From: Eledone cirrhosa
Taxonomy: Eukaryota
Length of the DNA: 64,000 bases
NCBI GenBank assembly: GCA_964016885.1
Contig: OZ024741.1
Location: 73,408,001-73,472,000 of the forward strand
Reading direction: 5' to 3'
In this document: one piece after another, positions 5,975 to 42,711 of the stretch
How the letters are laid out: the number at the start of each line of letters is the position of its first letter
Numbering within the stretch: the stretch's first letter is position 1
Program-made: the position numbers and the translations under genes
The notes under the pieces: generated by a model
The model's input: only the letters and a program-made list of their open reading frames with translations
Databases searched by the model: none
What the model was told of the DNA's origin: nothing

Positions 5975-6060
5975 ATACATACATACATACATACATACAT
6001 ACATACATACATACATACATACATACATACATACATACATACATACATACATACATACAT

Positions 6061-6732
6061 AAACACATTAAAAGCTACAGCAATGTGGAAGACATCCATG
6101 TACATAATATGAAAGAGTACTGGTGGAATGTTCCAGTAAAAACACCAATAAAATGCAGGCATAACAGACCAGATATTATGATATGGGACAGGGAGAAGAA
6201 AGCATGCACAGTAGTGGAAATTAGCTGCCCAGCAGATGCCAATATAGTATCAAAGATTAGTGAAAAGGAGAATATTTATTCAGACCTGATGAGAAATCTG
6301 CAGATACTCCACCCTGATTACACCTTCAGATTTATGCCTGTGATTATTGGGACACTGGGGTATGTTAGTAACTGCCTCAATACAAATCTTGAGAAGCTAG
6401 GCTTCACAGGAACAGTAAGAACACAACTAGTTAGGAAATTACAAGTACAATCCATTAATGGAACAGTAAAAATATGTAAAGCATTCCAAAAATGTTGCAT
6501 CTAATAACTGCATATACACATGTACAGATAAAAAGCATATACATATGCACACATACAACTCAAAACATACACATCCACACATACAATAACATCCATATCT
6601 AGACATGCATGCATACATACATATCTACCTAGTTGATTTTGTGTAAATTCCAATGAGAGAGTCTTGTGTCTATGTTAGAAACCGACTCTCTCTATATTTG
6701 TAAAACTTTGTGAAATTATAAAACCAGAGGAA
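6061..6732 (+). mobile_element. R4/Dong-like non-LTR retrotransposon, family A, 5'-truncated (RLE domain plus 3' UTR)
   Basis: ORF to 6504: EYWWN...HNRPDIMIWD...VVEISCP...KENIY, a PD-(D/E)xK restriction-like endonuclease. Flanked by (CATA)n on both sides. Confidence 0.88.
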
Positions 6733-6747
6733 CATACATACATATAT

Positions 6748-8112
6748 ATGTGATAACAAGTGCAGACTCTGCAGAATTAACATCGAAGATGTCACCCATG
6801 TCATAATCAGCTGTCCAAAGATGTCATCGCGGTACTATCTAACTATGAGGCATGATGTAGTGACCAAAACACTGTACAATGCAATCCGTTAGATGAGAAC
6901 ATATCCTATAATGGTATCTATAATAAGGAACGCGTAACCAGGGAATACTACACCCGATTAAGAAAGATCTGGTCATCGGAACTCCCTGCGCAAAACAATA
7001 CAGAGGCTCACAATGTGTTTGCTGTGCCTGTCCTAACACCAACTTTTGGAATACTCAATTGGACGATAGACGAAATCTGAGCGATTGATGTAAGAACTCG
7101 AAAAATACTAAACAACACCGGAAACTTCCACATCAACATTTACATAGACTGCCTTAACTTGAAACGTAAGCAGGGAGGCAGAGGCCTAACATCAGTCCAG
7201 ACAGTATTTGAATGTCGCATCATATCCCTCCGACAACATCTACGAACCTCAAAGCGTAGGAGCCCGTCTCTCGAGCAAGTCTATCTGTATGAAACAGAAT
7301 TAACATCGAAGATGTCACCCATGTCATAAGCAGCTGTCCAAAGATGTCATCGCGGTATTATCTACCTATGAGGCATGATGTAGTGACCAAAACACTGTAC
7401 AATGCAATCCGTAGAAAAGATAGCCCCGATAATAAACGCATTAAAAGCTACAGCAATGTGGAAGACATACATATACATAATATGAAAGAGTACTGGTGGA
7501 ATTTTCTAATAAAAACACCAATAAAATGCAAGCATAACAGACCAGATATTATGATATGGAACAGGGAAAAGAAGGCATGCACAGTAGTGGAAGTTAGCTG
7601 TCCAGCACATGCCAATATAATATCGAAGATTAATGAAAAGAAGAATATTTATGCAGAACTGATGAGAAATCTGAAGATACTCCATCCTGATTATACCTTC
7701 AGATTTATGCCTGTGATTATTGGGGCACTGGGATATGTTAGTAACTGCCTCAATACAAATCTTGAGAAGCTAGGCTTCACAGGAACAGAAAGAACACAAC
7801 TAGTTAGGAAATTACAAGCACAATCCATTAATGGAACAGTAAAAATATGTAAACATTCCAAACATTTTGCATCTAATAACTGCATATACACATGTACAGA
7901 TACTAAGCATATACACATGCACACATACAACTCAAAACATACACATCCACACATACAATAACATCCATATCTACCCATGCATGCATGCAGACATGTATAC
8001 ATATCTACCTAGTTGATGCTGTGTAAATTCCAATGAGAGAGTCTTGTGTCTATGTTAGAAACCGACTCTCTCTATTGGCAAAAATTTATGAAATTATAAA
8101 ACCAGAAAAACT
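6748..8112 (+). mobile_element. R4/Dong-like family A copy, rearranged and decayed
   Basis: CCHC knuckle remnant (CRLCRINIEDVTHVI..C), post-RT fragments, RLE ORF 7344-7961, and the same 3' UTR as the 6061 copy. Ends in (CATA)n. Confidence 0.85.
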
Positions 8113-8134
8113 TACATACATACATACATACATA

Positions 8135-8386
8135 CATTCCAAAAATGTTGCATCTAATAACTGCATATACACATGTACAGATACAAAGCATATACACATG
8201 TACAGATACAACTCAAAACATACACATCCACACATACACTAACATCCATATCTACACATGCATTCATACATACATATCTACCTAGTTGATGTTGTATAAA
8301 TTCCCATGAGAGAGTCTTGTGTCTATGTTAGAAACCGACTCTCTCTATATTGGTAAAACTTTGTGAAATTATAAAACCAGAAGAAC
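8135..8386 (+). mobile_element. R4/Dong-like family A, 3' UTR-only copy
   Basis: Near-identical to 6482-6732 and followed by a long (CATA)n. Confidence 0.85.
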
Positions 8387-8935
8387 ATACATACATACAT
8401 ACATACATACATACAAACATACATACATACATACATACATACATACATACATACATACATACATACATACATACATACATACATGCATACATACATACAT
8501 ACATACGGTTCCGGGGGTTACAACTGACTGTTGGAATATACACGTATTAACGTAATTGTTACTAAGTCTGGCTTTTGGTGAAACTGGCGCTAATTTTGGT
8601 AATTATAAACATTTTTCGGGGGTGTTTTTTACTGACTGACCCAATTATCAATTGTTTAATGTTAGCTGTATTAATTTTTGTTGATGACCATAATTAATTT
8701 GTAGGTTATATCGATGATTTTGACGTCGTTATTGGATGATTTGATGATCATTAAGTCACTGGTCATATTGAACAATTGATTATCTTGACGAATTTTTTTC
8801 ATTTTTTGCCACCACACTACCGGATTCAGTAGAGATATACTCCGAAGTGTTTAACACCAGTTAGTAATAATTATGACCCTGTGTGGCACCAATATCAGTG
8901 GGATTTCGTCTACCGATTATTAATTTTATATATAT

Positions 8936-9031
<96 letters not shown>

Positions 9032-9139
9032 CCATCCAGGGTTCAGTCGGGGCTAACCACAGTAAGTAAGGTACTCAATACATAGCAGAGTATAATTGTT
9101 TAATATAGAAATTAAAAGATGGTTAAAAAAGTTCCATAT

Positions 9140-9204
9140 ATTTTATTATGCGCATTTCGAAAACATCATCCTGGGACAAAAATTGTGTTCTCATCAGATA
9201 AAAT
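9140..9204 (-). ncRNA. Minimal type I hammerhead ribozyme (pLTR copy)
   Basis: Reverse complement reads ATTTTAT-CTGATGA-gaac...tttc-GAAA-TGCGCA-TA-ATAAAAT. Confidence 0.75.
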
Positions 9205-9817
9205 AAGGTAACATGATATGAGACCTAAAAACACTTGTGAACAAGAAAGTGTCCAGTCAACATATGACAAACGTATAAGAGAAGAGAAAAAAATAGGAAA
9301 AATTAATAAAAAGAAAGAAGACGGAAAAAGGAAAAAGAAATAGAAGAGAGGAAAAAAGAAAGAAAGAAGGAGGAGAGATACATTTTATCGGGAACGCTGT
9401 CAAAACTGAAAAAGCAACTGTGAATAACGGCTAAAAAAATAATAAAAAAATAATAAAAATAAATAAATAAATAAATAAATTGATGAAGTGAATATTCTAA
9501 TATTACAAATATTAGTGGTCTAGAATATAGAAACTGGGTATATTATTTAATATTGAGTTTGAATACTAACATTTGGATTAAGAAGTGTAAAAATGTATTA
9601 TAAAATAAAATAAAATAAAATAAAATAAAAATTAAATTAAAAATAATTATAAAAAGGTGGTTTTTTTAAATAAAATAAAATAAAATAAAATAAAATAAGA
9701 TAGACTAGAATAAAAAATTAAAATAAGAATAGTCTATCTATGTCAAAATTAAAAATTACTATTAAAAATTTATATATGTGGGGTATAGTATTTGATTATT
9801 ATTTTATATCAACAATA

Positions 9818-9933
9818 TCCCGCCGAGGTTAACTTTGCCTTTCATCCTTACGGGGTCGATAAAATAAAGTACCAGTAATGTACTAGTAAATTACTGGCCA
9901 AAAGTAGAAACTGTGCCAAAAGTAGAAACAATT
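9818..9933 (+). mobile_element. 5'-truncated Meta-type SINE nested in the Penelope 3' UTR
   Basis: SINE body flanked by the duplication TTTTATATCAACAA. Confidence 0.8.
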
Positions 9934-11426
9934 GTTTTATATCAACAAGTAAATAAAGGAAATAGAAAGGTTTATAAACGTAGAAAGACATATGACGTCA
10001 TAGATTGTTTACAAAATCTACGAAGGTTTGAACGAAAAAATGATGTCAATAGAGAAAGAAGGTGAAAGGCTTAATAATACAGAGAAAAGGGGATTAATAC
10101 ATTGTAGAATATAATGAAATATGTGAGAAAAAATGTGTGAAAAGATATATGTGTAAAAAATTAACCGTTATTCGTAGAATAAGTTATAGGACATAAGCTG
10201 TATACTTTGTGAAAGGTCTTAAAAGATTTATGAATACAGAGACCAAATAAGTCCGTACGTCTATTTATTAAAGAGTTGAAACTCGAGATAATGGTAAATT
10301 TTTCAGCTAGACATAAATTACAAACCCTAGATATGGAAGCATGGGAGTAAGGTAAAGCGTTGCAAATTTTACGCCAAGAGATTTCGTAATTAATGTTTTT
10401 GTCTTTTAAGGACCAAATAAGTTCTGAAAGTGTGGTGCTGGTCCTTTTAAGTGGATATTTAAATGTAGAAGAATGGTTATAGAGTCTAGCTTTAAAAGAA
10501 GTAGAAGTAGAGCCAATGTAGGTATAGGTATTGGTACTAGTTACCACTTTACATTCGTATATTAGGTTTTTATCGAGACAGAAATTACTAAGAGGACAAT
10601 TAGTTCTAATAGGGCAGTTGCATTTGCGATTAAAATTATTTATCGAGACAGAAATTACTAAGAGGACAATTAGTTCTAATAGGGCAGTTGCATTTACGAT
10701 TAAGATTATTAACAGAGCTATTTACCAATGACCCAGGATTATTTATAATAGGGACTGGAGTGGTGGAATTAGCTAAAGGAGGTGCTAAAGTTTCCTGATT
10801 TACATTACTATTTGAAGCATTCATCAAAGTTACATTTGACGTCGTATTTATACTTGTGTTATTTTGCCTAGAGTTTACATTGAGGTCGGGCCTTATAGTG
10901 TTATTGTTTTGACTCTCATGGTTGGATGCATATGAGTTATTATTTAATATTTTAGAATTATCTCTTGAGATAATTTTTAAAATGTTGGAAGTATTGGAAT
11001 ACGAGAATTTAATGGTATGCTTATTTAAAATCTTGCTATAAATATGTGAAGCGGGGAAGTTGTTATCTAAAGCCCTAAAAAATAATTTAGGGATATTACT
11101 AATAAGTAAAAGAGAGAAGGGAGCGTTATACCAAAGGATATTTTTATATCTAGGTCTCCTCTTTATGTTACTGGTATGCTTATAACTAGCTACATTACTA
11201 TAAGTTCTGCCAAGATTAGTTTCCTTAGTGTATTTAATTTTGTCTGGATATCCAAGCCCTAGATGACGCATTATTATAATAGTTGGCATTAGCATCGAAG
11301 ATATGTTTATTGGAGGATAAATTATGCATCCAACCATATTTTTTCTCTTCTCTTATTTTTTTGTCATATGTTGACTGAACACTTTCTTGTTCACAAGTGT
11401 TTTTAGGCATCTTATCATGTTACCTT

Positions 11427-11493
11427 ATTTTATCTGATGAGAACACAATTTTGTCCCAGGATGATGTTGTTTCCGAAATGCGCATAATAAAAT
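11427..11493 (+). ncRNA. Minimal type I hammerhead ribozyme
   Basis: ATTTTAT / CTGATGA / stem II gaac...ttcc / GAAA TGCGCA TA / ATAAAAT. Stem I is 7 bp and stem III is palindromic (ATGCGCAT). Confidence 0.8.
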
Positions 11494-11616
11494 GTATGGA
11501 ACTTTTTTAACCATCTTTTAATTTCTTCTTTATATATACTCCAGTTCTACCAACTGTCGAGTGCTACTTATCTGATATATGCATAGTTTTATTGTTCTAC
11601 AATATTACTCACCTCC

Positions 11617-11717
<101 letters not shown>

Positions 11718-11777
11718 GACGTGAGTAATATTGTAGAACAATAAAACTATGCATATATATATATATATGCATATATA

Positions 11778-11886
<109 letters not shown>

Positions 11887-12018
11887 TTATCTTGAATCTG
11901 TTTTCCTGTTATTTTCATCGAAAACATTTTTGAATACATTTTATCTTTCCATGATATTTGGATTACATTGAGTTCTTCATACGGATTGGACACTACGGTA
12001 TATTTTGGTAGATTTATC

Positions 12019-12121
<103 letters not shown>

Positions 12122-12476
12122 TTATTACCATTAATTTAATTAAGTAATTAGTTCTGGGATCAATGGTGATATTTGGCGAATAAATTATTGTGGTACTTAG
12201 TTAGGCCGTTTTACGTTCGTGTTCAAATTTTGCCGGTGTCGCCCGAACTATATAATAAAAGAACTGAACTAGAAAAATTAGTATTTTTATCATTATTGTT
12301 GTTGTGTGTGTCTCTCTGTGTATGGCATCCAAATAACAAAATGAAGATTGTTAAAAAATGTATTGGTTTATTTACATCTCTGGAGAAACAAACAAATTCT
12401 TACAATTTCATATAATGCACACACTCACATACACATAAATACATAAAGATATATATAATTTGTACATATATATATA

Positions 12477-12533
<57 letters not shown>

Positions 12534-12937
12534 CTTTGATGAAAATATTCGAAAAAATCCACCACCCCAAAGAAAACTAGTGTGTGACTTCATGTGACAG
12601 AGCGGGACAAAGATAAGATGGTGTTTAGATATATTTGTGAAGATGTCGTTTTAGGAGATCTTGTTGGTGCAGAAATCAAATGTGTTTAAACGGTGTATAG
12701 AAATTTCAAACGTTAAATGTTTATCTCGTGTAAACATTTAAGATCTCTATTTAGTATATCATTACATATAACTTAGATATGATGTTTTGGCTGGTTGCTG
12801 TCTTTCTTTTTGAAAGTTTCTCTGTAAATTATATATCTGTTCTCACGTGTTTGTCTATCTTTCCGAATGTTTTTATCTATCTAGTTCTTTCTCATTCTAA
12901 CTTCCCCTCTCATTCTCTCTTCTTACACACACACACA

Positions 12938-12991
<54 letters not shown>

Positions 12992-13000
12992 CACACACAC

Positions 13001-13038
<38 letters not shown>

Positions 13039-13059
13039 GCACACGCACACACACGCACG

Positions 13060-13094
<35 letters not shown>

Positions 13095-13314
13095 TAGTAT
13101 TGGTGCTCTGAAATAGCGATGTATACATGAATATATGTATAGTATATTTGGCTATATACTGTATGTTTAATTAAAAACATTCTGAAGACCATTCTCCATG
13201 AGTTTTGCCGAAAATAAGTAAGTGACATAGTCACTACTTTAAAACTCATAGCGAATGGTCTTCAACATTTTTTTAATTTAACATACAGTATATTGCCAAA
13301 TATGTATACATACA

Positions 13315-13389
<75 letters not shown>

Positions 13390-13574
13390 AAAAACGCTTG
13401 TATATGTATAATCAAGCCAAAACAAAGCAGGTATGGACATAGAATAAAGAATGCAAATGCAAAAGATATTGTTGACAATTAGTATGTCCATACCTGCATT
13501 GTTTTGGCTTTATTATAAAATATACAAACGTTTATACCTCATTACACAATGCTTCAAGTGAACTATAACTTCCT

Positions 13575-13614
<40 letters not shown>

Positions 13615-13621
<7 letters not shown>

Positions 13622-15872
13622 ATATATTAATAAATGGAAACTATATTTATAAAACCATATTTATTTTATTATATATATTTCAAGGGCAACCAAGGCAAAT
13701 TATGGTGCGCTTTCATCAGATAAAATACAGATTTGTTTTATAAATAAATATTGACATACCCGGAAAAAAAGACAACCTTAACGGTTGGAGCTTCCTGGAT
13801 AGTGGAGATAATATTTTATCGAGGGTAATACAAAGTTATGAGTGAGTATGCAAATGAGTGTCCGAAAAGTTGAAAAGATAACGGTTTATTTAAATGAAAC
13901 TGTTGGAAGAAGATGATATGTAAGGGAGTGAGAAAAAAGAAAAGGAAGGAGAAAGAGAGAAGAGGAAAGAAAGAACGATTATACATATTGATAGTGGAGA
14001 TAGACAGAGTGAACGATTATACATAGGGATAGTGGAGATAGACAGAGTGAATGAAGAAATAAGTTTTAATGGAAAAATATACATAGCGTAAATACATCTA
14101 AGTGAAAGAAGAAGTGAAAAAAGAAATAAGATTAACGTGGAAGAATAATATTTAGAATGTAGGGTTCAATTACGTTGTGATTATAATATTTATAATGATA
14201 GGTTGAAAAATTAGATTAAAATTAAAAATTAAAAAACAAAATTAAAGATTAAAATTTGCCTTAATATTAAAGATTTAATTTAATATTAATATTAAAAATT
14301 AAAAAAATTAAAAATTAAAATTAAAACAGAAGTATTTATATTATATTAAGATGTATTAGTAATAATATATTGGTTTAGATGTGTATGTTATGGATTATAA
14401 ATTATTTAAATAAATATATAGTATTTTACATTAGAGAAAATCTAGTATAGTTTATTTTATTAAAGTAAGTTTGGCAAAGTTAAAGTTATATTTATTAATA
14501 GTTGTAAGTCAAAACTTAAACATCCAAATAATTCTAAATTTATGAAAATTTACGAGAGTTTACAAAGGAATAACTACTTAATTATATTATAAAAACAGTA
14601 AGGAAGTATAAAGGAAGTTAGAAGTGATTTTTTAAGAACTCAAATGACTCCAAGGATACATAAAAAACTTTTCGAAAAAAAAAAATTTTTTTATTTTATT
14701 TTTAAAAAATCTTTTATTCGAAGTCATAGATGTTATAAAGTTAAAAAATGTTATCTTAAGAATATAATTAAAACATAAACCATATGTTATTTTATAAGAA
14801 GTCATAAATTTATCTTAAGAATATAATTAAAACATAAACCATAGGTTATTTTATAAAAAGTCATACTTGTTATAAAGTTTTAAAAAATTTATCTTAAGAA
14901 TATGGTTAAAACATAAACCATAGGTTATTCCACATATATATAAAAAAACCTATATATAAAAACCATATGTTATTCCACATATATATAAATATTTGAATAC
15001 ATATATTAAAAATGTTTGAATATATAAAATATTGGAATATATGAAAATAATGGTTTTTCTATATCTTTCAAAGGAACTTTCAAAGAATTTTCTAAAACCT
15101 TCAGAAAGTTTTTCAAGGAAAATTTTCCTTAAAAGAATTTCAAGTAGTCATATAAAAAAAAGGTTATAATCTATTGATAAGTGTAATAATATAAAGTATC
15201 TTTACAAGGTAGAGATAATAGAAAGTAAATTAAATATATATTAATCATATATAGATATAATCTGAGGGATGAGGTTGTAGGAGGTTGGATATAGAAAACA
15301 TTATGTAAAGGAGATTAACCATATATTATATTTTATATATATATCTAAAAGTTGAGTTTAAACGATGTTTACAAGAACTAAATAAATTATTTCGCAAATT
15401 AATAGAGTTCTTACTTTTTAGTATAAAGAATATTTCTTCAATGCAAAGGGAGCAATTTTTGGATAGAGCCGTGTAGGAAGGAGTTTGGAGATAATTTCCC
15501 AAGATAATGAATAGTTAATATTCTTGGATTTTAAGTTCCATAATAAGTTGGATAGAGAAGTTGAAGATTTTTTACCAATATTCTTAAAGGAACATTTATG
15601 TTCCTTCATACACAGCTCTATCCAAAAATTGCATATCCAGATATGTCAATATTTATTTATAAAACAAATCTGTATTTTATCTGATGAAAGCGCACCATAA
15701 TTTGCCTTGGTTGCCCTTGAAATATATATAATAAAATAAATATGGTTTTATAAATATAGTTTCCATTTATTAATATATTGTGTATTTATTCCACTGACCT
15801 GTTGAGTGCTTTATATCAGTTATAAAAAATTTTAAGCTTGTTGAATCCCAACAAATTAAATATAACCTCTGC
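13615..15872. mobile_element. Penelope-like insertion: short plus-strand 3' end (15635-15872) preceded by a ~2-kb inverted segment
   Basis: Minus GIY-YIG C-terminus at 15418-15609 (EHKCSFKN..KKSSTSLSNLLWNLK..YSLSWEII). 13620-13758 is inverted relative to 15642-15783. The end sequence resembles that of the 50891 element. Inserted in (TA)n. Confidence 0.85.
15673..15738 (+). ncRNA. Minimal type I hammerhead ribozyme (inverted copy at ~13660-13727 on minus)
   Basis: TATTTTAT-CTGATGA-aag...ctt-GAAA-TATATA-TA-ATAAAATA, with a perfect 8-bp stem I. Confidence 0.82.
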
Positions 15873-16194
<322 letters not shown>

Positions 16195-16203
16195 ATATAT
16201 ATA

Positions 16204-16560
16204 TTGTTATACTTTGGGAGAGTCATGTTGCCAATAAGAAACACACGCACCAGTTGCTTTCACTCCAATTTATTATAAATTAAATTTATAAATTTAAGAA
16301 TTTATAAATTTCCGGTTGGTTGGTTGGAATGTGTGACGAAAGAACTTTGACAATATATGAACAACCGTCCGGTTATGGAACCAACCAACCAACCGGAAAT
16401 TTATAAATTCTTGAATTTATAAATTTAATTTATAATAAATTGGAGTGAAAGCAACTGGTGCGTGTGTTTCTTATTGGCAACATGACCATCCCAAAGTATA
16501 ACAATATCGGTTTCAACACACGTTTTCAGATAAAGAATCTTGCTAAAGAACTTCAGAAAC

Positions 16561-16563
<3 letters not shown>
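16204..16563 (+). mobile_element. Penelope-type 3' end with inverted 5' arm (family of the 26620 copy)
   Basis: 16204-16326 is inverted relative to ~16378-16504. The direct part matches 27027-27262. Confidence 0.8.
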
Positions 16564-16627
<64 letters not shown>

Positions 16628-16944
16628 CACACACACATAATTTCTTCATTTCATCTCAGCAGCGATCGTCCAATCGAACCAGTAAAACACCTCTTGCCAG
16701 ATGTTTCGCTTCAGCATCACTGTTCGTATTTCCGATGAATCTTTCAATCCGATTTCTTAATGACGTATATAAATGAAGTTAGTGTGTTATTGCCGTAGTT
16801 AATAGATCTTTGTGTTGGCTGCCATGATACTTGATTTCAGAATATTTCTTCAGGATGTCTCGCACTGAGAGCTGAAAAGAAAACCACCAATCATTCTACC
16901 CGGATTTCTAACGATTCTGCTAATTCTCCGTCTCGAGGAAGCTA

Positions 16945-17290
16945 TGTATGTATGAACCTATAACTCTTGAGAGTGTCGTAGGTGTACCGTATTGACATAC
17001 GGCGTTTCTAGAGCTATTTGTTTTAAAACCAGGTGGAGCCCATCTCCTCTCCAGGTTTGAATATAGCAGATTTCTTCAAGAGAAGGATAGGGAGTGAGAG
17101 AATGAAAGTGCGAAAGATATATGGAGGAAGAATCAACTCCAGTACTAGACTGGTACTTTTTTTATCGACTTTGAATGGATGAAAGGCAATGTTGACCTCG
17201 GTGGAATTTGAACTCAGAGAGCAAATAGTCGAAACAAATACCGCAAAGCATTTTAACCAACGTTCTAACGAGTCTGCCGATTTGCCGCCT
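16945..17290 (-). mobile_element. Meta-type SINE variant with an alternative long 3' tail ending in (CATA)n
   Basis: SINE head and body at 17140-17290. The tail is shared with 46250-46400 (GTCGTAGG...GTATTGACATAC...GAGCCCAT.CCTCTCCAG). Confidence 0.72.
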
Positions 17291-22051: not shown

Positions 22052-22267
22052 CGAGGGATGCTGAAATTTTCCTGGCTTGATCACTGCTACAGAGGCCTGA
22101 TTGGAGGCCGAACCTTCTAAGTTCTGTACATTGGACTTCGAATATTTGAAGCGCCGCTGCAATAAATGTGTAAATCTGAGAGGGGAAAAGGTTGAATGAA
22201 ACCATAACTAACTGATCCACCTCTATATTCTTTTACCCAACGTCAGGAACTTTTCAGCACCCCCTCG
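22052..22267. mobile_element. Tc1/mariner-type MITE
   Basis: TA|CGAGGGATGCTGAAATTTTCCTG ... CAGGAACTTTTCAGCACCCCTCG|TA, giving mariner-like TIRs with a TA duplication. Confidence 0.8.
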
Positions 22268-22287
22268 TAAGTATGTATGTATGTATG

Positions 22288-23137
22288 TCAAGTCGCTCTC
22301 GAATGCTACTGGTAACATGTAACCCTGTACAACCTGTCTCATGGTCGGGTCGTCGGCGACTAAGCCGGCAACCCCAATAAGCTTGCTTGGTGAGGAGGGT
22401 GATATTTGGACACCCTGCGGGATGAAATACAAGACATGTAAAAATGCGTAGGAACGCAGCAGAGTCAACGGCCATCCAAGTAGTACTTTTTTTTCACCTG
22501 GGAGTGAAAGGCCCCCAGTTGTTTTCACAACACTTTTCTTGGAGAGGGAGACTCTGAAAAAAACCCTGCGTCTTCGGAAGCATCCGATGATGTTGACAAG
22601 TTCTCCTTTTCGGGTATTGTTTTCGATGCTCAGAGAGTCGGATTGGTCTAGTGCAAGGCCTTTCTCTACTTAAAAAAAATGCAAAGCACAGGCCTTTCTT
22701 GTTCAGGATCTGTTACAGGTTCGTGTAAAGGATTTTGGACTCCCAGCGGAATGAAAAACAAATCCCGTCAAAGGCGAAGGAACACAGGAGAGTCAACGGC
22801 CATCCAATAAAGTTTTTTTTTTGTGAGACTCATAGTCTTCATTAAGACATCTCTCTAGGAGAAAGTACTCTGATATAAAACCTGCGACTTCGTTTGCATC
22901 CAATGATCTTTTAGGGGAAATGCATTCGATGTTCAGAGAGTGGGGTTGGTCCTATACAAAGCCTTTCCTCACTTAAAAAAGTTTTAAGCAGAAGCATCGC
23001 TTGATATGTGACATTTTTTGCGATTCAAGGTATTACTAGCCATAAGCAAGACCTAGCAGAACTAAAATCCCATGTCCGTGATGCTCATGCTTAAGTATGA
23101 AGTAATAGCATTACTCGAAATCGAGTTGCAGCCACCA
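22288..23137 (+). mobile_element. RTE-derived non-autonomous retroelement (internally duplicated), in (TATG)n
   Basis: Structured 5' head, the RTE-5'UTR-like motif GGAGAGGGAGACTCTGAAAAAAACC (twice), and a 3' hairpin ACTCG-AAAT-CGAGT followed by GCAGCCACCA(TGTA)n. Confidence 0.72.
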
Positions 23138-31649: not shown

Positions 31650-31663
31650 GATGGGAGAGAGCG

Positions 31664-31742
<79 letters not shown>

Positions 31743-31826
31743 GATGTGTTTGTTTGTGAGAGAAAGTGAAAAAAAGATAGTCGAAGAGAGAGTCGAAGAG
31801 AATGATGCAGACAGAAAGAGCGAGAC

Positions 31827-31898
<72 letters not shown>

Positions 31899-32600
31899 CA
31901 GACAAACAGATAGAGAGAGTGTGTGAGAGAGAGTAACACTCAAACAGAGAAAGACAGTGACAGAGATAAATGGTGAGTTTTGTATGTATGGTTTACTATA
32001 AATAGGGTTAAGTGTTGTAATATGGTGTGATGTGTTGATGTGGGAATGTGGTAATATTCCAATATAGTGTTGTGGGAACGTGGTAATGTAAAGATGTGTG
32101 ATGCGGGATTGTGGGATTGTGATAGAGGATGAATCGTTAGTATGAGGATAGAATGTGGAGGAAACAAAAGAATTGATTGTGGACAGATTAGAAGAGGATG
32201 AGTAGTTGGAAAATAGTAATTAGCGTGATGAGGAGAGAACAAATGGGATGGAGGAGTAGAGTATGGTTGACAGGGGGAGTTGAAAGGTGGAAAAGGGCAG
32301 AGAAAGGGAGACAAAGTAAGAATGAAAGAAGGAGAGAAGGGAAAAGAGGGAAAGGCGGAGTAAGAATGAAAGAAATATAAAAGGGAAGAAAGAGTTGAAG
32401 TGAGAATAAGGCGGTGAGGACAGAGATACAGAATGAGGGAGATGGAATGAGAATGACAGGGGGGCGGAGCAGAGAGGGAGAGGAAGGTGAGATGTGAGGT
32501 AAGGGTGAAAGAAAAATAGGGGAAGAGAGATAAATGGAGTGAGAATGCAAGGGGTGACGGAAAGAGAGAGATAGAGTGAAAATGGAAGGGGAGAGGAGGG

Positions 32601-32631
<31 letters not shown>

Positions 32632-32649
32632 AATGGAAGGGGAGAGGAG

Positions 32650-32691
<42 letters not shown>

Positions 32692-32911
32692 GAGAGAGAG
32701 AGAACGAGAGAGTGGAAATGAAATAGTTGAGGATGACAGAAGTGAAGAAAAAAATTTTATTGTTGGAGGGTAGAGAATGAACTGTAGAGAGAGGAAGAAG
32801 AAGAAGAAGAAGAAGAAGAAGAAGAAGAAGAAGAAGGAGAAGAAGAAGAAGAAGAAGAAGAAGAAGAAGAAGAAGAAGAAGAAGAAGAAGAAGAAGAAGA
32901 AGAAGAAGAAG

Positions 32912-33672
32912 ACTGCAATTTGTGGAAAGGGGAAAGTCGGTTGAATGGCCCCAGTACTGATACTTTATTTCATCGATCCCGGAAGGATGACAGGCAAAGT
33001 TGACATGGAGAGATTTGATCTCAGAATGTAAGGTGTCTGAATAAATACCACAGAGCATTTCGTGAGACGCTCAAAGTATTCTGCTAATCCAGCGCTTTCA
33101 AACGACAAATAATGGTTTCTGATTTAGGCACAAGGCCAGCAATTTTGGGGGAGAGGAAAGTCGATTGAATCGACCCCAGTGCGAGACTAGTACTTTATTT
33201 CATCGACCCCCGTAAGGATGAAAGGCAAAGGTAACCTCGGCTGGATTTGAACTCAGAACATAAAGGGCCGTAACTCTATGTCACGAAGCATGGTGCCAAT
33301 GCCCTATTATTATTTGTCAGTGGATTGGCAGTATCGGTAGAGGGTCGGGTGCCATGCTTTGACGCATAGAGTTACCTCCCTTTATGATCTGAGTTCAAAT
33401 CCCGCCGAGGTTAACTTTGCCTTTCATCCTTACGGGGTCGATAAAATAAAGTACCAGTAATGCACTGGGATAATTGCTGGCCTTGTGCCAAAAGTAGAAA
33501 CAATTATTTGTCAAACGACAAATAATGTTTTCTGATTTAGACACAAGGCCAACAATCTTTTATGGGGTAAAGTCGATTAAAACGACCCCAGTGCATAACT
33601 GGTGCTTTATCTTATCGACCCCCGTAATGATGAAATGTAAAGCTAATCTCGGCGAGATTTGAACTCAGAACG
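32912..33672. mobile_element. Cluster of four Meta-type SINEs (three minus, one plus at 33318-33508)
   Basis: SINE bodies and B boxes are visible. TCAAACGACAAATAATG is duplicated at ~33098 and ~33511. Confidence 0.85.
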
Positions 33673-34917
33673 TTTGTTTTCTTTTACACAACTCAGTAAA
33701 AAGCAATAGTAATAGAAACTTGCTCAAGATTCCATGTCATGAGATCGAAGCCGGTATCTCATGACTGCAAATTCAGCTTCTTAACTTCCTGATCTTACCT
33801 GCGTTCACAAGAGAAAGAATATAAGAAGCATGCGGCGAGAATATGTGATGGCGGAAGATATGAAAATAGCAACGATTTTGGAAAGATAAAACGCCAAGAT
33901 ACGATAATAGAAGGGACGAAATTAAACGAGATTAAAGAGAATAAGAGAAAACACTAAAAATATTGAGAAGAAAACTGAGATGAAATATATATAAAAATTA
34001 TGAAAACCATGATTTTGAAAGGAGACGTATGCAATGACTGAATGGAGCAGTAGACAAAGAAAGAGAAAAGGACATAAAAATTAAAATAAATAAATAATGG
34101 ATATTAATAAACTAAAATAGAAGAAAAGAGATAAATGATGCAAAATGTTTCAGTTTAAATCTGAAATATTTCCAAAATTGCTAATTGATGAAGGTTGGAC
34201 TCTGTTCTAACTAACAACCTAGTTTTCAAAGACACTATCGAAATTACAAGGCAGAATTTTAACCAAAATCTTGCAATTTTTCTCTTGATATATATATATA
34301 TTTTTAATACAATTTTCCTTACTCTTTAATATTGTCATGTACCCTTCCCATCTCCCCTCTTCCTTCACGACCCTCCTCCTAACCGTCATCACCATTATCT
34401 AATACTCCTCCCTTCACCTCTTTTTAAACACTATCACTACTTTATACTTCTCATCCTTCACGACAACATTCTCCATAACACCACCACCACTACCACCGCC
34501 GCCACCGCTGTCGCCGCCGCCGCCAACACCACCACCATCACCACCACCGCCGTCGCCGCCGCCACCACCACCAACACCACCACCATCGCCTCCCGCATTC
34601 ACCACAACCACCACCATCGCCGCCGCCACCACCACAATCACAACCACCACCAACACCAGCTCCCTTACCCCTCCCCCATCACAAAAATCTCTCCCTCCTC
34701 TTCCTCCGTCACGACCAACATCACAGCCAACTCCCTCCTCGCTTCCATCGCTCCTCCTTCTCCCCCTCCTCATCATCATCATCATCATTATCGTCATCTC
34801 TACTTTCCTTTCCTCACCTTTATTATTCCCTGTCTGGAACTATTTCTAATATTTATTCTTTCTTTCTTGCCGCGCGCGCGCACGTGTGTGTGTCTGTGTG
34901 TGTGTGTGCGTCTGTGT

Positions 34918-34967
<50 letters not shown>

Positions 34968-35067
34968 GTAAATATATGTATATAGGAGCGTGTGTGCGTT
35001 TGTAATTGTGAAGAAACAGGTAATTGTCCGAAAATTGGCATCTAGAAACCATGAGTAATAATATATA

Positions 35068-35138
<71 letters not shown>

Positions 35139-35161
35139 GTATGTATATGTATATATATATG

Positions 35162-35196
<35 letters not shown>

Positions 35197-35228
35197 GTAT
35201 ATATAAGTATACATACATATATATGTGG

Positions 35229-35282
<54 letters not shown>

Positions 35283-35301
35283 CTGTGTGTATATATATAT
35301 A

Positions 35302-35435
<134 letters not shown>

Positions 35436-35607
35436 CAGACACACTAAATATTGGTGCTCCAACATACCGTTAAATACATATATGTACGTGTTGTATATGG
35501 GATGTTTATGAAAAACATTTGACAGCATTTCGTTATGATTTTTTTATTGTTGGGACCACAGTCACACATCCTTAGTCTCAACAAAACCAGGGGAAGCAAC
35601 CGACAAC

Positions 35608-35708
<101 letters not shown>

Positions 35709-36089
35709 TCAGAAGTTATTGATTAAAAATAAAAATAACCAGAGTTAATTATGTACTCAATATAGAATCTCCTCTAAAGTTAATATATTGTACGAGAACG
35801 AGAGATTCCAAACACTCCGTTCAGTATCGAGTATCCTCTTTTCCCTTTATATTTATATTTAAGTGTTTACAAACGCGCGCACACACACACACAAACGTGT
35901 GCACAGACACACGCACACACGTGTGTTTGTGTGTGTGTGGATATGCAACCATATGCGTATTTACGCATATGTGTTTGTATGTAAATACAAAAATACTGTG
36001 AACAAGATAGAGTATAGTAAGTATACAACTGGGTGATTTAAAATTCTTAATAAAAACTCATCTTCCACGTTCTAACGACCAAGTAAAAT

Positions 36090-36605
36090 ATATCCAGTTA
36101 TGAATACAGAGCATGATGTGCACACCAGGATAGGCAAGGCATGGGTGGTGCTCTCAATTTCCAATAAAATGTGTAGGTGTCTCCAACCGAGAAAACTACG
36201 AAAATGAGGCTATTCAAAGCAACAGTTGAGGCCATTCTTCTCTTCGGTTGTGAGTTATGGATACTAATAAAAATCCTTACAAAGAGGATTAATGGCACAT
36301 TCATATGAATGCCGAGAAAGGTCCAGAGTATATTCTAGAGAACACACGTAGCAAATAAATCGCTCTACGGCTCACATCTTCACCTTTGCGGCGACATCAT
36401 AAGGCGTAGGAGGCTCGCATTAACCGGATATGTGAAACATCACAATGAACCTACTGATAGAGTTATTTCTGGAAACCTGATGTGTGCAGACGAATTGGGA
36501 AACCAACCACCATGCTGAAGGTTGTTCTTGAAGATGATACCGAGCTGGAAGCAAGGAAAATTCAGACAGCAATGCTAGACAAGGTGAGCTGGAGGAGGAA
36601 CCAGT
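36090..36605 (+). mobile_element. Decayed RTE-clade LINE fragment
   Basis: KMRLFKATVEAILLFGCELW...IIRRRRLALTGYV...IQTAMLDKVSWR, with stops and frameshifts. Confidence 0.78.
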
Positions 36606-36656
36606 AACGGATGTATAGAAGAAAATATAACCATAAATATTTTCTTCAGCGAATCA

Positions 36657-36942
36657 TTTTATGTTCTCTCTTTCCTTTAATTTTGAGATTAGTTTTAACC
36701 ACAAAAAACAATTGGGCCTCATTACCCAATTTTCTTCAGATATTGGAATGAAATTTGGTAAGTTCAAATGTCTATTTTTGACAATAAGACGTGGAAAAGT
36801 TGTGTCCCCCTCTGAAAACCTGAAAATGAACGACTTTACGATATAACTTCTACATTCAGGTGACGATATTTGGCGCATAAAATTTCAGGCCATCGACAAA
36901 GAATAGATGAGAGATACTTCTGAATCCGTTTCTATGGCCACT
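36657..36942 (-). mobile_element. Rearranged relative of R4 family B (3' end, inverted internal piece, RT piece)
   Basis: 36660-36690 matches the 3' end at 36967-36995. 36700-36864 (+) encodes KKQLGLITQFSSDIGMKFG. 36865-36942 (-) encodes RSISHLFFVDGLK. Confidence 0.75.
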
Positions 36943-36969
36943 ATGTATGTATGTATGTATGTATGTATG

Positions 36970-38846
36970 TTTTCTCTTTCTCTTAATTTCGAGTATATTT
37001 TTTTGACCGGCCACCTTCCTGGTGGCAAGGTTGTAAAAGAAAAGAAATTGTCATCCCTTGAATCGCAAGAATGTTTTGCATATTTTGAAGGTGCCAGCTA
37101 TCGCAGCCATTTGTAGACTATGAATTAGGGAGCTGCGCTTTTTGTCCGCAAATCCAAGTTCGGTCATACTTTGGTCCAAGCGGGTTGGTATATAACCCGT
37201 AACACCAATAATGATGGGTATGAAGCTAAAGGTGTATCTTGGATACTGGATGTGTAAGCTCCTCATCAATGGTCCGTAGATGTCCTCCTTCTCCTGTATT
37301 TTTCTGACAACGTTTACATCAAGTGGGCAGCTGATCTCCACAACAGAACACGTTTTCAATGTGTGGTCCCAAACTACAATATCAGGCCGGTTGTGCTTTA
37401 ATTTGGTGGCAGTTTTTATTTTCAGGTTCCACCAGTATTCCTTAGTGCCATCTGTCTCAATATATTCTTCCTCGTTTGTTGTTAATTTTGTTTTCCGAAG
37501 TGCGTTCCAGATAGTTCTAGCTATCCCATCGTGTCTCATGGGGAGGTAGTAGCGAGATGACATTCTTTCGCAGCTGGCAACAATGTGGCTTACATCCTCG
37601 ATCTTTGTTTTACATAGCCTACATTTATTGTCAGCTGCTGGCCCTCCTCTTTTGTGCAGCAGATATTTGGTAGGGAGTTCTTGTTCCTGTATTGCATAGA
37701 GATATCCCTCAAGGTGTGATGTCATAAACTTGTCGGAACTCCATGCCAGGCTTTTTGAGTGGTTTATCCCCTCTATGGTCTGTGTTTTACGCCTCAAGTA
37801 TCCATGCACAACTTTCTCTGTAAATTGGTCAATTTTTTTTTCTTGTTTGAACATTGAATAGGATCTTCCGATTTCTCTGGGTGAGAGATTTATATCAGGC
37901 TTTATTCCATATCTCTCCTCCAGATCAGTCGCTATTCTAATGATATTTCTTTTTTCATGCTCATAAACCTGAGCAAGATGGTCGCCAACCTTTTTCCTCT
38001 GTTGAAGGTGTTGCTTCAGTGTTACTATCCGGGTCTCATATGTTGTTAATATTGATTTTAGACCCCGGCCACCTTCCTTGCGTGAGAAGTATAGCCTATC
38101 CACATCACCATTGATGTTAAAGTTCCCAGTAACACTGAGAAGTTTTCGAGTTCTAACATCCATCTCACTTAGTTCTTGCAATGACCAGTTCAGTAGGCCA
38201 AATGTTGGCGTTAGAATTGGCACAGCATAGGTATTGTGGGCAATGTATTTGTTGTATGCTGACAGTTCTGATGACCATATTTTTTTTACTCTTCTGAGGT
38301 ATTCAGTTCTGGTTCTCTCCTTATTTATGGGTCCATCATATCTGACATTCTCATCCTGTCCAAGATATCTGTAGTTGTCACCTGACTGCAGAGGTTGTAT
38401 TGTCAGGCCGTTCATATCTAGATTTCTAGAGGAGGGCACAGCTCTTCCACGTTTTACTGCCAAATATGCACACTTGGACTCACCAAATTTCATTTTGATG
38501 TCGGTTGAAAATTGTGTAATGAGGTCCAATTGTTTCTTGATGTCATTGATATTTGGCCCATACAACTTCAGGTCATCAACAAAGAAAAGATGGGAGATAC
38601 TTCTGGGCCCACTTCTTTGTCCACCTTGTTTCCTGAGTAGGTAAGATAGTGGATTCAGTGAGAGAACGAAGAGTAGTACTGACAAGCTATCACCCTGAAA
38701 GATGCCCTTCTGGTAATGTATCCTATCAGTCTTAACCTGCTCCTTCTCACCTCTAAGGATCAAATTGGTGTACCAGTTCTTGGTCAGGCGTTCAACAGCA
38801 GCTACTAATGGTTGTGGGACTTTAGCTAACTGTAAAGCCTTAATAA
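36970..38846 (-). mobile_element. R4/Dong-like retrotransposon, family B, 5'-truncated, ORF uninterrupted
   Basis: Flanked on both sides by (CATA)n on the sense strand. Short 3' UTR. Confidence 0.92.
37051..38846 (-). CDS. Reverse transcriptase, CCHC zinc knuckle and restriction-like endonuclease (partial, no native start)
   Basis: GIFQGDSLS, HLFFVDDLKLY, YRYLG, GGRGL, CRLC..EDVSHIVASC, RHD, RPDIVV..VVEISCP..K. The frame stays open upstream of 38763 to the microsatellite. Confidence 0.92.
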
Positions 38847-38922
38847 TGTATGTATGTATGTATGTATGTATGTATGTATGTATGTATGTATGTATGTATG
38901 TATGTATGTATGTATGTATGTA

Positions 38923-39116
38923 TAGTTATCCATGCTAGGTACTCTTTATTCTTCCATTGGGGATTCAATCTGAACGAAAGAATCCGATCCAATGTCAATA
39001 TGGTGTCGTGCAGTCTATTTGTACTAGATGATTTAAATAATATAAGCACTAAATCCAACTGCGGTGTATATAGAGATGACGGATTAGCTATTAAAATACA
39101 TACTGCTAGGCATTAA
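38923..39116 (+). pseudogene. Penelope/Naiad-type RT fragment
   Basis: IHARYSLFF...LFVLDDL...CGVYRDDGLAI parallels ILSARKTLI...GLYRDDM in the intact ORF. Confidence 0.7.
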
Positions 39117-40124
39117 ATAGATTTACGTATAACCTCATCAACACATTGAACATCTTGACCTATATATATATATAAAGAGAAAGTGAGAGATAGATTGAAG
39201 TATGCGTGCCTATGTGTGTATATGTATATATGTACGTGTGTGCGTGATTAAATTATTTCTAAAACACTTTCTAAAATCTCGGTGTAATGCAACACTGAAC
39301 ACGTTTTCCTTGTGAGAACAGAAAATATAGCATTTAGTTAATGAATGAGAGAGAAAGAGGAAAACAGAGAGAGGGCAGAGAGGAAAAGAAGGAAAGGAAA
39401 AGGCAGAGCAATAGGGGATTAGAAAGCCATATGTTGCTGGCCAGGAAATTTATTATATTTATGATTTATGTGTCCACGTCACTATGTGAGTTATATTTGA
39501 ATACACACACACATATATACCCCACCACACACGCACATATACCCCACCACACACACACACACATATGCAGTTGAAGCCGCTTATTAGAATCGAGGATAAT
39601 GCTCTCAACCGACTATTGAGATCAATATATATGTGTGTGTGCGTGCGTGTGGGTGTATGGGTGTGTGGGTGTATGTGGGTGTCTGTGTGTGTGTGTATGT
39701 GTGAGAGAGAAAGAGAGAGAGAAAGCGGAAGGGAGAGATATACGTATGTAAGTATAAATTTGTATATATGTATGTATTTAAGCCATCCACTTGGTGATAT
39801 TTCGAAGTGCAGGAAACTGTTTCCTACTCAATCGTTCAAGAAGTCTGTCTTGGTATCTGAGATTAAATTCAGCTAATCCATTTATTTATTATTTTTTATA
39901 TCGCTGATTCATTTAGAATACTAGTCAAACCAGTTCACTATTTAGAAGGGTCCGTTTTACTTGAAACACTCTCATATACGTATTGGATATTATTAAATTG
40001 AAGTAGCTTTGTACGTCTGAGTCCTTTCAATTGTATCGCCATTGACTCAATACAAAAATGTTGATGTGACTATGGTAACTGTGAAGAGACTGCTGAGGTT
40101 TTGTTTCGGCCACAATGGTAATGG

Positions 40125-40760
40125 AAATGATTTCCAATTTATGCACAACATTTTAGAAGGAGAGGGTAAATCGATTAAATCGACACGTGCATTATTCTAT
40201 TGACCCCGGAAGATTAAAAGTTAACTTCGGCGGAATTTGAACTCAGAACGTAAATGGCCATGACTGAATGCTACATAGCATTCTCTCTGACGCCTTTAGG
40301 ATCCTGCCTATCAACCACCGGCCGTAATCTTAAGGGTTTCTGATTTAGGCACAAGGCTAAGAATTTTGCGGGCGAGGAAAGTCGATTAAATCGACGCAAG
40401 TGCGTTATTGGTACAATTGTATCGATCCCATAAGAATGAAAGGCAAAGCTAACCTCAGCGGTATTTGTACTCAGAACGTAAAGGGCTGTAACTCTATGCT
40501 GCAAAGCATGATGTCCGATGCTCTACTGATACTGCGAATCCACCACTGTAAATGTTTTGTGACTTAAGGAGAAGGCCAACAATTTTGAGGAGGAGAAATT
40601 CAATTAAGTCGACCCCAGTGCATTACTGATACATTATTTTATCGTTGAAAGTCAAAGTTAACCTCGGCGGGACTTAAACTCCGAATGTAAAGAACCATGA
40701 CTAAATAGTGTATAGCATTCTTTTTAGCGCGTTTAACATTCTACCAATCGACCGCCGGCC
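40125..40760 (-). mobile_element. Three tandem diverged Meta-type SINEs
   Basis: Repeated AAAGTTAACCTCGGCGG.ATTTGAACTCAGAA bodies. Confidence 0.8.
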
Positions 40761-41189
40761 GTAATGACAATAAAGTCAGTAAGCTGTTATTGTTAGTCCT
40801 ATGTCATCGGGCTACGATCATCCTGTCATTGTATAGGAATATAGGACAACTTTATACTATAATGAGGCCTTTTGTTTTTCTTATGTAGGACTGCGTTCTC
40901 TAATATATCCGTCCCTGTTATTTGAGTCAGACTGAGCTGCCATCTACTATCTTTCACATGTCGAATGACTACAAGGCTTTGGTTGACCCGTACTATTGCA
41001 GAAGAAACGCGATTTAGTTAGCTACACAGTGTAATTGTACGTCGTTGTGATCGTTGTGAAGTGGAATCCTTATCCACAGAATCACAGTCAATTTCCATAT
41101 ATTTAACACTACTTTAAAGAATATTTTGAACGGTATATGTGTATATATATATATATATATTTGTGTGTGTGTACGTAAATATGTATGTA

Positions 41190-42645
41190 TGTTGTGGTTT
41201 CATAATTTTATATTTTACCAATAGAGAGTCGGTTTCTAACATAGACACAAGTCTCTTTCATTGGAATTTAGACAACATCAACTAGGTAGATAAGTATGCA
41301 TGCGTGCATATGTGTGCAGGTATGAATATTATTATATATGTGGATGTGGACGTGTTGAGTTATATGCGTGCATGTGCATATGTTTTGTATCTGTACATGT
41401 GTACATATTTTTACAGTTCCATTAATTGATTCCTAACTAGTTGGGTATTTCTGATTCTGTTAAACCCATTTTTTCAAGATTTGTACTGAGGCAGTTACTA
41501 ACATATACCAGAGCCCCAATAATCACACGTATAAATCTGAAGGTATAGTCAAGGTGGAGTATCTGCAGATTCCTCATTAGTTCTGCATAGATGTTCTCCT
41601 TTTCGCAAATCTATACTATTATATTGACATCTGCTGGGCAGCTAACTTCCAATACTGTGCATGCCTTATTTTCCCAGTCCCATATCATTATATCTGTCTG
41701 TTATGCTTGCATTTTGGGAGGTTTTGACCGGAACATTCCACCAGTACTCTTTCATATTATGTATGTCTTTTAATATGTTTATTGTTTGGGCTATCTTTTC
41801 TACGGATTGCATTGTATAGTGTTTTGGCTACTACATTATGACTCATATGTAAATAGTACCATGATGACATCTTTGGACAGTTGCTTATGACACGGGTGAC
41901 ATCTTCGATGTTAATTCTGCAATGTCTGCGTTTGTTGTCACATCTAGGTGTTTTGCCTGCATCCCAATCTCTTTTGTGAATCAAGTATTTTGTATTGATT
42001 TCCAGTTCTTGGAATGCAAAAGCATATCCTTCAAAGTGACAGCTAATATAGCAGCTGTCAGTCCAAGACAGACTGCTTTACTTATCTATATTACTCTCAC
42101 TCTGGAGCTTCCTGGCAACATATCCATGTATGATGTTTTTCAGATAAGCATGCAGTTTTTCATCCATTGATTCACTACGGTATTACTGAACAATTTCCCT
42201 GGGTGTGAGTTTTTTTTATTATCATGCAGGGAGTATATTTCAAGGAGTTCCTTCCCAACTCTCATCATCTTATCTGTCTCATGTAGACAGACTTGCTCAA
42301 TAGATAGGCTCCTATGCTTGGTGGTTCGTAGATGTTGTCGGAGGAGTACTGTCTGGACTGATGTTAAGCCTCTGCTTCCTTGTTTACGTTTCAAGTAGAG
42401 GTGGTCTATGTCACTGTTGATGTGGAAGTTCCCGGCGTTGTTTTTCGGGTTTTGTCTATCGTCCAATCGAGTATTCCAAACGTTGGTGTTAGGATATGCA
42501 CATCAAACACATCATGATCCACTGTTTTATTGTGCGCAGATATTTCAGATGACCATATTTTTCTTAATCGGGTGTAATATTCTCAGGTTGCGCGTTCTCT
42601 GTTACAGAAACCATCATAGGATATATTCTCATCTATCCCTAGGTA
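41190..42645 (-). mobile_element. Decayed R4/Dong-like family A copy
   Basis: GNFHINSDIDHLYLKRKQGSRGL, CRINIEDVTRVISNC and RLE remnants. 3' UTR matches 6505-6732. TATG-type repeats on both sides. Confidence 0.85.
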
Positions 42646-42711
42646 TATGTATGATGTATGTATGTATGTATGTATGTATGTATGTATGTATGTATGTATG
42701 TATGTATGTAT

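Follow-up and report, generated by a model that had tools for sequence, protein, structure and literature searches.

Retrotransposon copies and CATA arrays in the window

The window, a stretch of 64,000 nucleotides from Eledone cirrhosa, contains six retrotransposon insertions that lie in two groups. Three copies of a family termed B are stacked between CATA arrays at 5975–8506, next to an end of element E.

5798–5974, minus strand: element E end, on the far side of the array from B1 and in the opposite orientation
5975–6061, plus strand: (CATA)21 array, 5′ flank of copy B1
6062–6732, plus strand: family B copy B1, 5′-truncated, with the RLE part (aa 1032–1164, 53% to family A) and 3′ UTR
6733–6748, plus strand: short CATA run common to B1 (3′) and B2 (5′)
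6749–8110, plus strand: family B copy B2, three ORF pieces in scrambled order and 3′ UTR
8111–8134, plus strand: CATA run common to B2 (3′) and B3 (5′)
8135–8385, plus strand: family B copy B3, 3′ UTR alone
8386–8506, plus strand: (CATA)30 array, 3′ flank of B3

The second group, at 36664–43415, comprises a copy of family A, an old piece related to it and a further family B-like copy.

36664–36941, minus strand: old family A-related piece, deleted and partly inverted, with a single CATA past its 3′ end
36942–36969, minus strand: (CATA)7, 3′ flank of the family A copy
36970–38848, minus strand: family A copy, 5′-truncated at position 2347 of 4224
38849–38925, minus strand: (CATA)18+ array, 5′ flank of the family A copy
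41178–41191, minus strand: (CATA)3, 3′ flank of B4
41192–42654, minus strand: family B-like copy B4, older, frameshifted and 5′-truncated
42657–42710, minus strand: (CATA)13 array, 5′ flank of B4
42713–43415, plus strand: element E copy, beyond the array from B4 and head-to-head with it

The ORF pieces of B2 run in the order aa 976–1022, 736–869 and 984–end. The family A copy is 99.8% identical to full-length copies and keeps an open frame with the RT end, a CCHC knuckle and the RLE. Element E is an interspersed, non-coding element of ~610 bp, which we take to be RTE-like.

All six insertions proposed in the preliminary description are present and share the polarity of their repeat. Its statement that CATA lies at every end holds for 11 of the 12 element ends, which touch sense-oriented (CATA)n; the 3′ end of the piece at 36664–36941 has one CATA only. 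The division into families A and B stands, but this internally deleted piece is an old relative of family A at 60–70% amino acid identity and thus a third subfamily. Tandem stacking was borne out: a single run flanks one copy at its 3′ end and the following copy at its 5′ end. Because stacked copies share runs, the window offers only three independent outer 5′ flanks (5975–6061, 38849–38925 and 42657–42710).

An RLE-type protein and its relatives

Family A is intact and very young. The element is 4224 bp long, 10 of its 12 full-length copies retain a 1169-aa ORF, and copies are mutually 99–100% identical. Its 3′ UTR measures 81 nt, and one intact ORF is that of L037 (5752–9258). Families A and B share ~50% protein identity. 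The single ORF of family A matches RVT_1 in Pfam (E=4e-25) and contains in its C-terminal part a CCHC knuckle and a PD..(D/E)..K endonuclease; C980, C983, H992, C997, R1009-H1010, P1059-D1060, E1075 and K1091 are conserved in 67 homologue rows, and the match to R2, in profile as in fold, extends to the C terminus. Pfam gave no APE match in this protein. The element has a fixed 3′ end, variable 5′ truncation and no LTR. Judged by ORF and RT, by the CCHC and PD..(D/E)..K motifs and by the structure of their ends, families A and B are RLE non-LTR retrotransposons.

The predicted fold of the whole family A protein (pLDDT 88; a single-sequence prediction, at pLDDT 34, was rejected) is closest to R2 proteins, with Z 24 over 788 residues for 9dou_A. 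Three helices are predicted at residues 22–74, with conserved W20, G41 and W50, and a disordered linker spans 81–149. The N terminus has no Pfam match to Myb or to a zinc finger, and residues 1–100 hold no conserved Cys/His. An Rfam scan of two loci (L041 and L031) returned no ribozyme family, only sub-threshold, repeat-driven miRNA matches; a descriptor for an HDV-like ribozyme gave one weak match at the 5′ end, and in folding the family A 5′ end does not surpass shuffled sequences.

In the same genome, a sister Dong-like family has TAA at 30/30 3′ ends and at all 8 visible 5′ junctions, and carries a shared variant tail of ~15 nt. Family A is ~31–33% identical in amino acids to the TAA-flanked elements, from which it is separated on a long-stemmed branch. 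The TAA-flanked Dong-like elements form other branches of the tree, and the CATA- and CTTA-flanked elements, metagenome relatives included, form one long-stemmed clade. A first metagenome scan gave no match; among the relatives found, L290 is flanked by (CATA)n at either end, and (CTTA)n borders L289, L291, L292 and L294 on one side or both. In the RT tree the grouping falls with TAA-flanked elements and with unnamed proteins of insects, in a set that included no named Dong, R4, HERO or NeSL; this tree and the other come from quick searches, with SH-aLRT as the only support measure, and their root is unsure. Membership in R4/Dong is suggested by the architecture and by this grouping, in a tree of unnamed members. 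Dong in the strict sense, with (TAA)n insertion, was ruled out: the flanks here are CATA, and the TAA-flanked family is a different branch.

Flanks and junctions across the genome

In a 600-kb background of evenly spaced genome stretches, CATA-class 20-mers make up 0.49%, TATG 0.66%, CA 0.9%, TG 0.5% and the TA class 5.5%. The 5′ junction is visible in 69 family A copies, and in 64 of these the 5′ flank is CATA-class, which settles the question of chance; one flank is TA, none is TATG, CA or TG, and none lies in the opposite orientation. The 3′ flanks are CATA-class in 75 of 80 distinct copies. In family B, CATA occupies 42 of 56 5′ flanks and 69 of 75 3′ flanks. The 5′ ends without a repeat (4/69 in family A, 13/56 in family B) belong to older copies, and deletions and later insertions are visible in some. 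These counts concern copies picked by best similarity, a non-random set, and leave out those whose 5′ end lies beyond the locus. At the first 30 loci, (CATA)n stood upstream of all 19 truncated copies, in two with short intervening extra sequence. The preliminary description had pointed to 5′ junctions genome-wide as the place where its reading could fail; the truncated copies there are (CATA)n-flanked in a strand-specific manner, and the (CATA)n targeting of these R4/Dong-like elements is supported. Many flanks are mixed CATA/TA/CA, and the specificity is therefore for CATA at the cut position within a run of alternating YA rather than for pure (CATA)n.

In 66 young copies (those below 99% set aside), the first two bases past the 3′ end are CA in every case and the first four are CATA in 63; the CA could be RNA-encoded instead of a cut preference, and the TAA family does have its shared variant tail. 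Among the young copies, the 43 truncated ones have 39 distinct break points, which argues that the repeat is a target and not only a tail. Flanks differ from copy to copy around bodies that are 99–100% identical and are thus mostly pre-existing DNA. Duplications that include non-repeat letters measure 8 nt (L033), about 10 (L057), 19 (L058, L060) and 27 (L020, L061), their lengths being unreadable in pure arrays. Junction overlap averages 2.0 nt over 31 junctions, compared with 0.8 in simulation. An asymmetry between the two sides is new here: the upstream repeat is at least 44 nt in 55/55 young copies (a set without L038, which has an internal deletion), whereas the downstream repeat, often 6–30 nt, is below 44 in 22/55 (Fisher p=3e-8). 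Among further full-length 5′ ends, 4 of 22 score below 44 nt upstream.

It is highly probable from these sequence patterns that the R4/Dong-like families A and B sit in (CATA)n, in one orientation, through repeat recognition and nicking by their own protein. The protein would recognise (CATA)n and nick the TATG strand opposite the CA step, and the element RNA would be reverse-transcribed from that nick. A second nick, presumably ~8–27 nt downstream, would yield the short, variable duplication, and 1–3 nt of microhomology would serve to join the 5′ end. Upstream of the site, the protein likely requires a CA/TA-alternating repeat of ~40 nt or longer, with only ~6 nt required downstream. The tandem stacks would be accounted for by the repeat that each insertion leaves at either side. 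The putative repeat reader may be the endonuclease domain, or instead the N-terminal helical domain or RT-side contacts.

Were the repeat a tail encoded by the element, and the 5′ flanks the tails that earlier copies left, joined on by template jumping, the stacks and the invariant CA past the 3′ end would be expected, and of 135 arrays bounded on the right by a Dong 5′ end, 42 indeed have a Dong 3′ end on the left. However, the left side of the other 93 is element E, unrecognised DNA or, in one case, an internal piece (this count was run with a repeat filter, as the 3′ UTR of family B resembles CATA). The 3′ flanks of near-identical copies diverge from base 5 on, duplications take in neighbouring non-repeat bases, and 5′ junctions in unique DNA largely refute this account, which we regard as extremely improbable. 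Loose insertion into AT-rich or YA repeats, with the CATA bias coming from survival or microhomology, would fit the many target arrays mixed with TA and CA and the use of TA-rich arrays by element E. Yet (TA)n, ~ten times commoner than CATA in the background, supplies a single family A 5′ flank, opposite-orientation cases are zero, and the copies (99–100%) are too young for selection to have sorted them; such loose direction is very unlikely.

It is also possible, if somewhat doubtful, that the targeting is the same and integration itself makes part of the long upstream run, a cDNA end or top-strand overhang being recopied to add ~40–80 nt at the 5′ junction, so that the element lengthens its own landing pad. 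The asymmetry of the 55 young copies is consistent with this, as is that of the TAA family (39–100 nt upstream, 23–66 downstream, n=8). In the 600-kb sample, pure TAA runs reach 48 at most, and 0/31 CATA arrays without a Dong 5′ end hold a pure run of at least 44 nt. Single loci point the same way: a higher-order array in L050 is interrupted by a ~65-nt block with a different CA/TA pattern, a 20-nt unit occurs four times in L020, and an 83-nt pure run lies between duplicated 5′ pieces in L035. On the other hand, array-typical impurities reach the junction in L026, L057 and L058, and long pure runs without a Dong 5′ end occur in 4/20 arrays at element E ends and several times in the window. A need for upstream repeat also has a precedent in SART1Bm, which, of three repeats, used only the third for insertion (PMC7265360). 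Searches for an empty allele covered contigs of four public runs against 35720–43100 (no usable joint; the contigs skip repeats), flank pairs in 1.49 Mb of DNA (only other element junctions) and the genome with the L035 flank (besides itself, only 69–83% relatives). Tentatively, the four-letter-repeat branch (CTTA, CATA) may descend from TAA-targeting ancestors, with Dong-type elements extending their target by 40–80 nt at the 5′ junction and building long pure microsatellites for the next copy.

Significance and comparison with known systems

The four-letter landing site CATA of an RLE-type element, compared with the TAA of described relatives, is a variation on known microsatellite targeting. 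TAA, CTTA and CATA make up a natural target-switch series in one enzyme family, and with young TAA and CATA versions in many intact copies in the same genome, domain swaps can locate the target reader of a zinc-finger-less RLE protein. The upstream-long asymmetry gives a direct way into the question of how a repeat is measured by such proteins, or of how the 5′ junction forms, and bears on the origin of long microsatellites in octopod-type genomes. The value as a gene-insertion tool is modest, since the target is a dispersed repeat and not one safe site.

RLE clades are often site-specific. The literature searched yielded no CATA target for R4/Dong; Repbase and Fell 2025 (with its supplement) lie outside that scope. 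Dong of Bombyx mori, DongAg, DongBg, the ostracod Dong and the R4 clade have, like the families here, a single ORF with RT, CCHC and RLE and no N-terminal zinc finger, and Dong/R4 elements likewise have their microsatellite target on both sides. R4/Dong are reported to have a diverged N-terminal SANT/Myb-like domain (PMC7998251), which the predicted three-helix part of family A may resemble. The Dong target is (TAA)n (PMC3812793, PMC7998251) as opposed to (CATA)n, and B. mori Dong has an HDV-like ribozyme at its 5′ end (PMC3774820), whereas the searches above found none in family A. Octopus 'Dong-R4' LINEs are abundant in cephalopods: O. vulgaris has 5 recently active families with 1129 insertions (PMC13282606, whose main text lacks 'target' and 'CATA'), and a full-length Dong occurs in O. 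bimaculoides (PMC9115989). Family A may well be one of the families reported from O. vulgaris; its nearest named protein is from Argonauta hians (65%).

Waldo elements of the R1 clade (WaldoAg1, WaldoAg2 and WaldoFs1) target ACAY microsatellites (PMC3812793), which include (ACAT)n, equal to (CATA)n, the target found here. Unlike families A and B, Waldo has an APE-type endonuclease and belongs to an unrelated clade, and the common target would be convergence. Togen and some HERO families are RLE elements specific for microsatellites (PMC4640811); Togen, with a (TG)n target, is NeSL-related, unlike families A and B. R2 provides the best sequence and fold matches (structures of R2Tg, R2Bm and R2Pm), aligned from RT to RLE at 17–20% identity to family A, but differs in its N-terminal zinc fingers plus Myb and its unique rDNA site.

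Insertions and other elements in the window

The window has 34% GC and is dense in microsatellites. The six RLE retrotransposon insertions claimed in the preliminary description are all present at the places assigned to them. (CATA)n in the element's sense orientation was said to adjoin every end and does adjoin 11 of the 12; the 3′ end of an old piece at 36664-36941, which has been deleted and partly inverted, is followed by only a single CATA. The window alone is weak evidence because three of its 5′ flanks double as the 3′ end of a neighbouring copy, and genome-wide flanks were surveyed in the 3.0 Gb assembly (G000). Also present in the window are:

5798-5974, element E, opposite-facing in the same arrays
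22267-22726, element E, likewise
42713-43415, element E, likewise
43827-44436, element E, likewise
51337-53580 (+), open frame of 748 codons, with a start presumably like that of a Penelope-type element

Element E (also L269-L288) is non-coding, ∼610 bp long and represented by 1054 genome candidates. It is flanked by TATG-class repeats, the opposite orientation of CATA, at 18/23 5′ ends and 41/54 3′ ends, and also sits in TA-rich arrays. It is putatively RTE-like.

Family A and its target sites

The family A copy at 36970-38848 (-) gave 2942 first-look candidates genome-wide, of which 40 were scored (∼100% identity). Twenty stretches around long copies were fetched, 12 of them containing both ends, and the full-length element is 4224 bp (4218-4229; n=12, one with a duplicated 5′ part). 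Reconstruction of a full-length ORF, proposed in the preliminary description, yielded an intact 1169-aa frame in 10 of these 12 copies. The first 172 bases used as a query returned 588 genome candidates. The protein contains an RT domain, matches R2 proteins best and has an Argonauta hians protein as its nearest named match (65%), which points to a probable octopod host. Its CCHC knuckle and PD..E..K nuclease residues are kept across 67 aligned homologues, and its predicted fold, built with the homologue alignment, has a pLDDT of 88. Residues 22-74 are predicted to form three helices, after which comes a disordered linker; this layout would fit the SANT/Myb-like domain that PMC7998251 reports for R4/Dong. 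The 81-nt 3′ UTR (L037:9262-9342) folds better than 200/200 shuffles (z -3.3) and is a candidate protein-binding hairpin. Family A-like sequence matching 36970-38848 also occurs in contigs of three public sequencing runs labelled as other organisms (X1, X3, X8), with few differences in X1 and X8.

Targeting of (CATA)n by a distinct Dong-like branch is real and strand-specific, and one of the targeting families is young and intact. In the first 30 family A loci, (CATA)n lay upstream of every one of the 19 copies that showed a 5′ truncation. The 3′ flanks of 80 distinct copies were CATA-class in 75, TA in one, CA in one and without repeat in three; TATG was seen neither at these 3′ flanks nor at any visible 5′ junction. 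In copies of ≥99% identity, the 3′ end was followed by CA in 66/66 and by CATA in 63/66, and 43 truncated copies broke off at 39 different positions. Scoring of 5′ junctions tolerated ≤35 nt of extra sequence, and 50/55 young copies had none. Genome-wide enrichment at these junctions, on which the preliminary description had staked its claim, was found: 64 of 69 visible junctions were CATA (TA 1, none 4), against a background of 0.49% in 60 evenly spaced 10-kb stretches read with the same 20-nt classifier (TATG 0.66%, TA 5.5%, CA 0.9%, TG 0.5%).

Family B (5345 genome candidates; 44-57% amino acid identity to family A) was counted in copies with 80-98% DNA identity to their references. CATA-class flanks were present at 69/75 3′ ends and 42/56 5′ ends; of the 13 5′ ends lacking a repeat, some of those checked had been rearranged or hit by a later insertion. 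The reading that the repeat is only an element-encoded tail fails because flanks differ between near-identical copies, 93 of the 135 arrays bordered downstream by a Dong 5′ end lack a Dong 3′ end at their opposite edge, and some duplications take in non-repeat neighbouring bases.

Probable insertion mechanism and repeat asymmetry

Insertion most likely occurs by standard target-primed reverse transcription, which is established for R2. The first nick would fall on the TATG strand opposite a CA step and the second 8-27 nt downstream of it (six informative cases), and the 5′ end would be joined through a short overlap. Junction overlap averaged 2.0 nt (31 junctions) versus 0.8 nt in simulation. 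Duplicated or out-of-order 5′ pieces lie upstream of the final junction in L035, L048, L207 and window 6749-8110, separated by a pure CATA run in two of them, which suggests template switching during 5′ joining.

The upstream run measured at least 44 nt in 55/55 young family A copies, whereas the downstream run was <44 nt in 22/55, with a minimum of 6 (p=3e-8). When another 22 full-length copies were scored, the upstream run reached ≥50 nt in 18; the shorter four comprise one of ∼40 nt and three situated in arrays that are degenerate or duplicated. The TAA-flanked family described below shows the same trend, and the older family B as a whole displays a weak asymmetry (medians 41.5 and 52.5). 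We somewhat favour a long upstream footprint as its source over extension of the repeat at the junction, which would also make a long upstream run and is the less probable, though still credible, explanation. Individual loci point both ways, and no empty allele was readable in contigs of public runs, a flank-pair search or a genome search with the locus flank.

Relatives and their targets

The 60 evenly spaced stretches contained further Dong-like copies (∼30% identity) flanked by TAA. One such family (L231-L260; L162:1473-3628) is young, with 784 candidates, and has TAA at 30/30 3′ ends and 8/8 visible 5′ junctions; its copies share an AAC-variant tail of ∼15 nt, and their 5′ junctions carry long runs of pure TAA. 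In a 128-row RT tree, families A and B fall inside a 70-row clade (SH-aLRT 100) separate from the TAA-flanked elements.

Metagenome flanks were read in the 29 of 80 loci that reach the C terminus. (CATA)n lies at both ends of L290 (45%), and (CTTA)n at both ends of L291, the 5′ end of L289 and L292 and the 3′ end of L294; most relatives at 27-38% have TAA ends. On TAA branches, (AATA)n or (CAA)n adjoins one end of L297, L298 and L326, possibly reflecting further target drift. In a 28-row tree, the elements flanked by CATA or CTTA group together with one whose flank is not legible (clade support 100, stem 1.04), and the CATA elements form a subclade of this group (97). Because the root of this tree is unsure, we only infer the target order TAA to CTTA to CATA.

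In a literature search confined to article texts and abstracts, outside Repbase, no R4/Dong element with a CATA/ATAC target came up; this family may already be recorded in the supplements of PMC13282606. The branch likely belongs to the wider R4 clade. It behaves as Dong does, except that it lacks Dong's TAA target.
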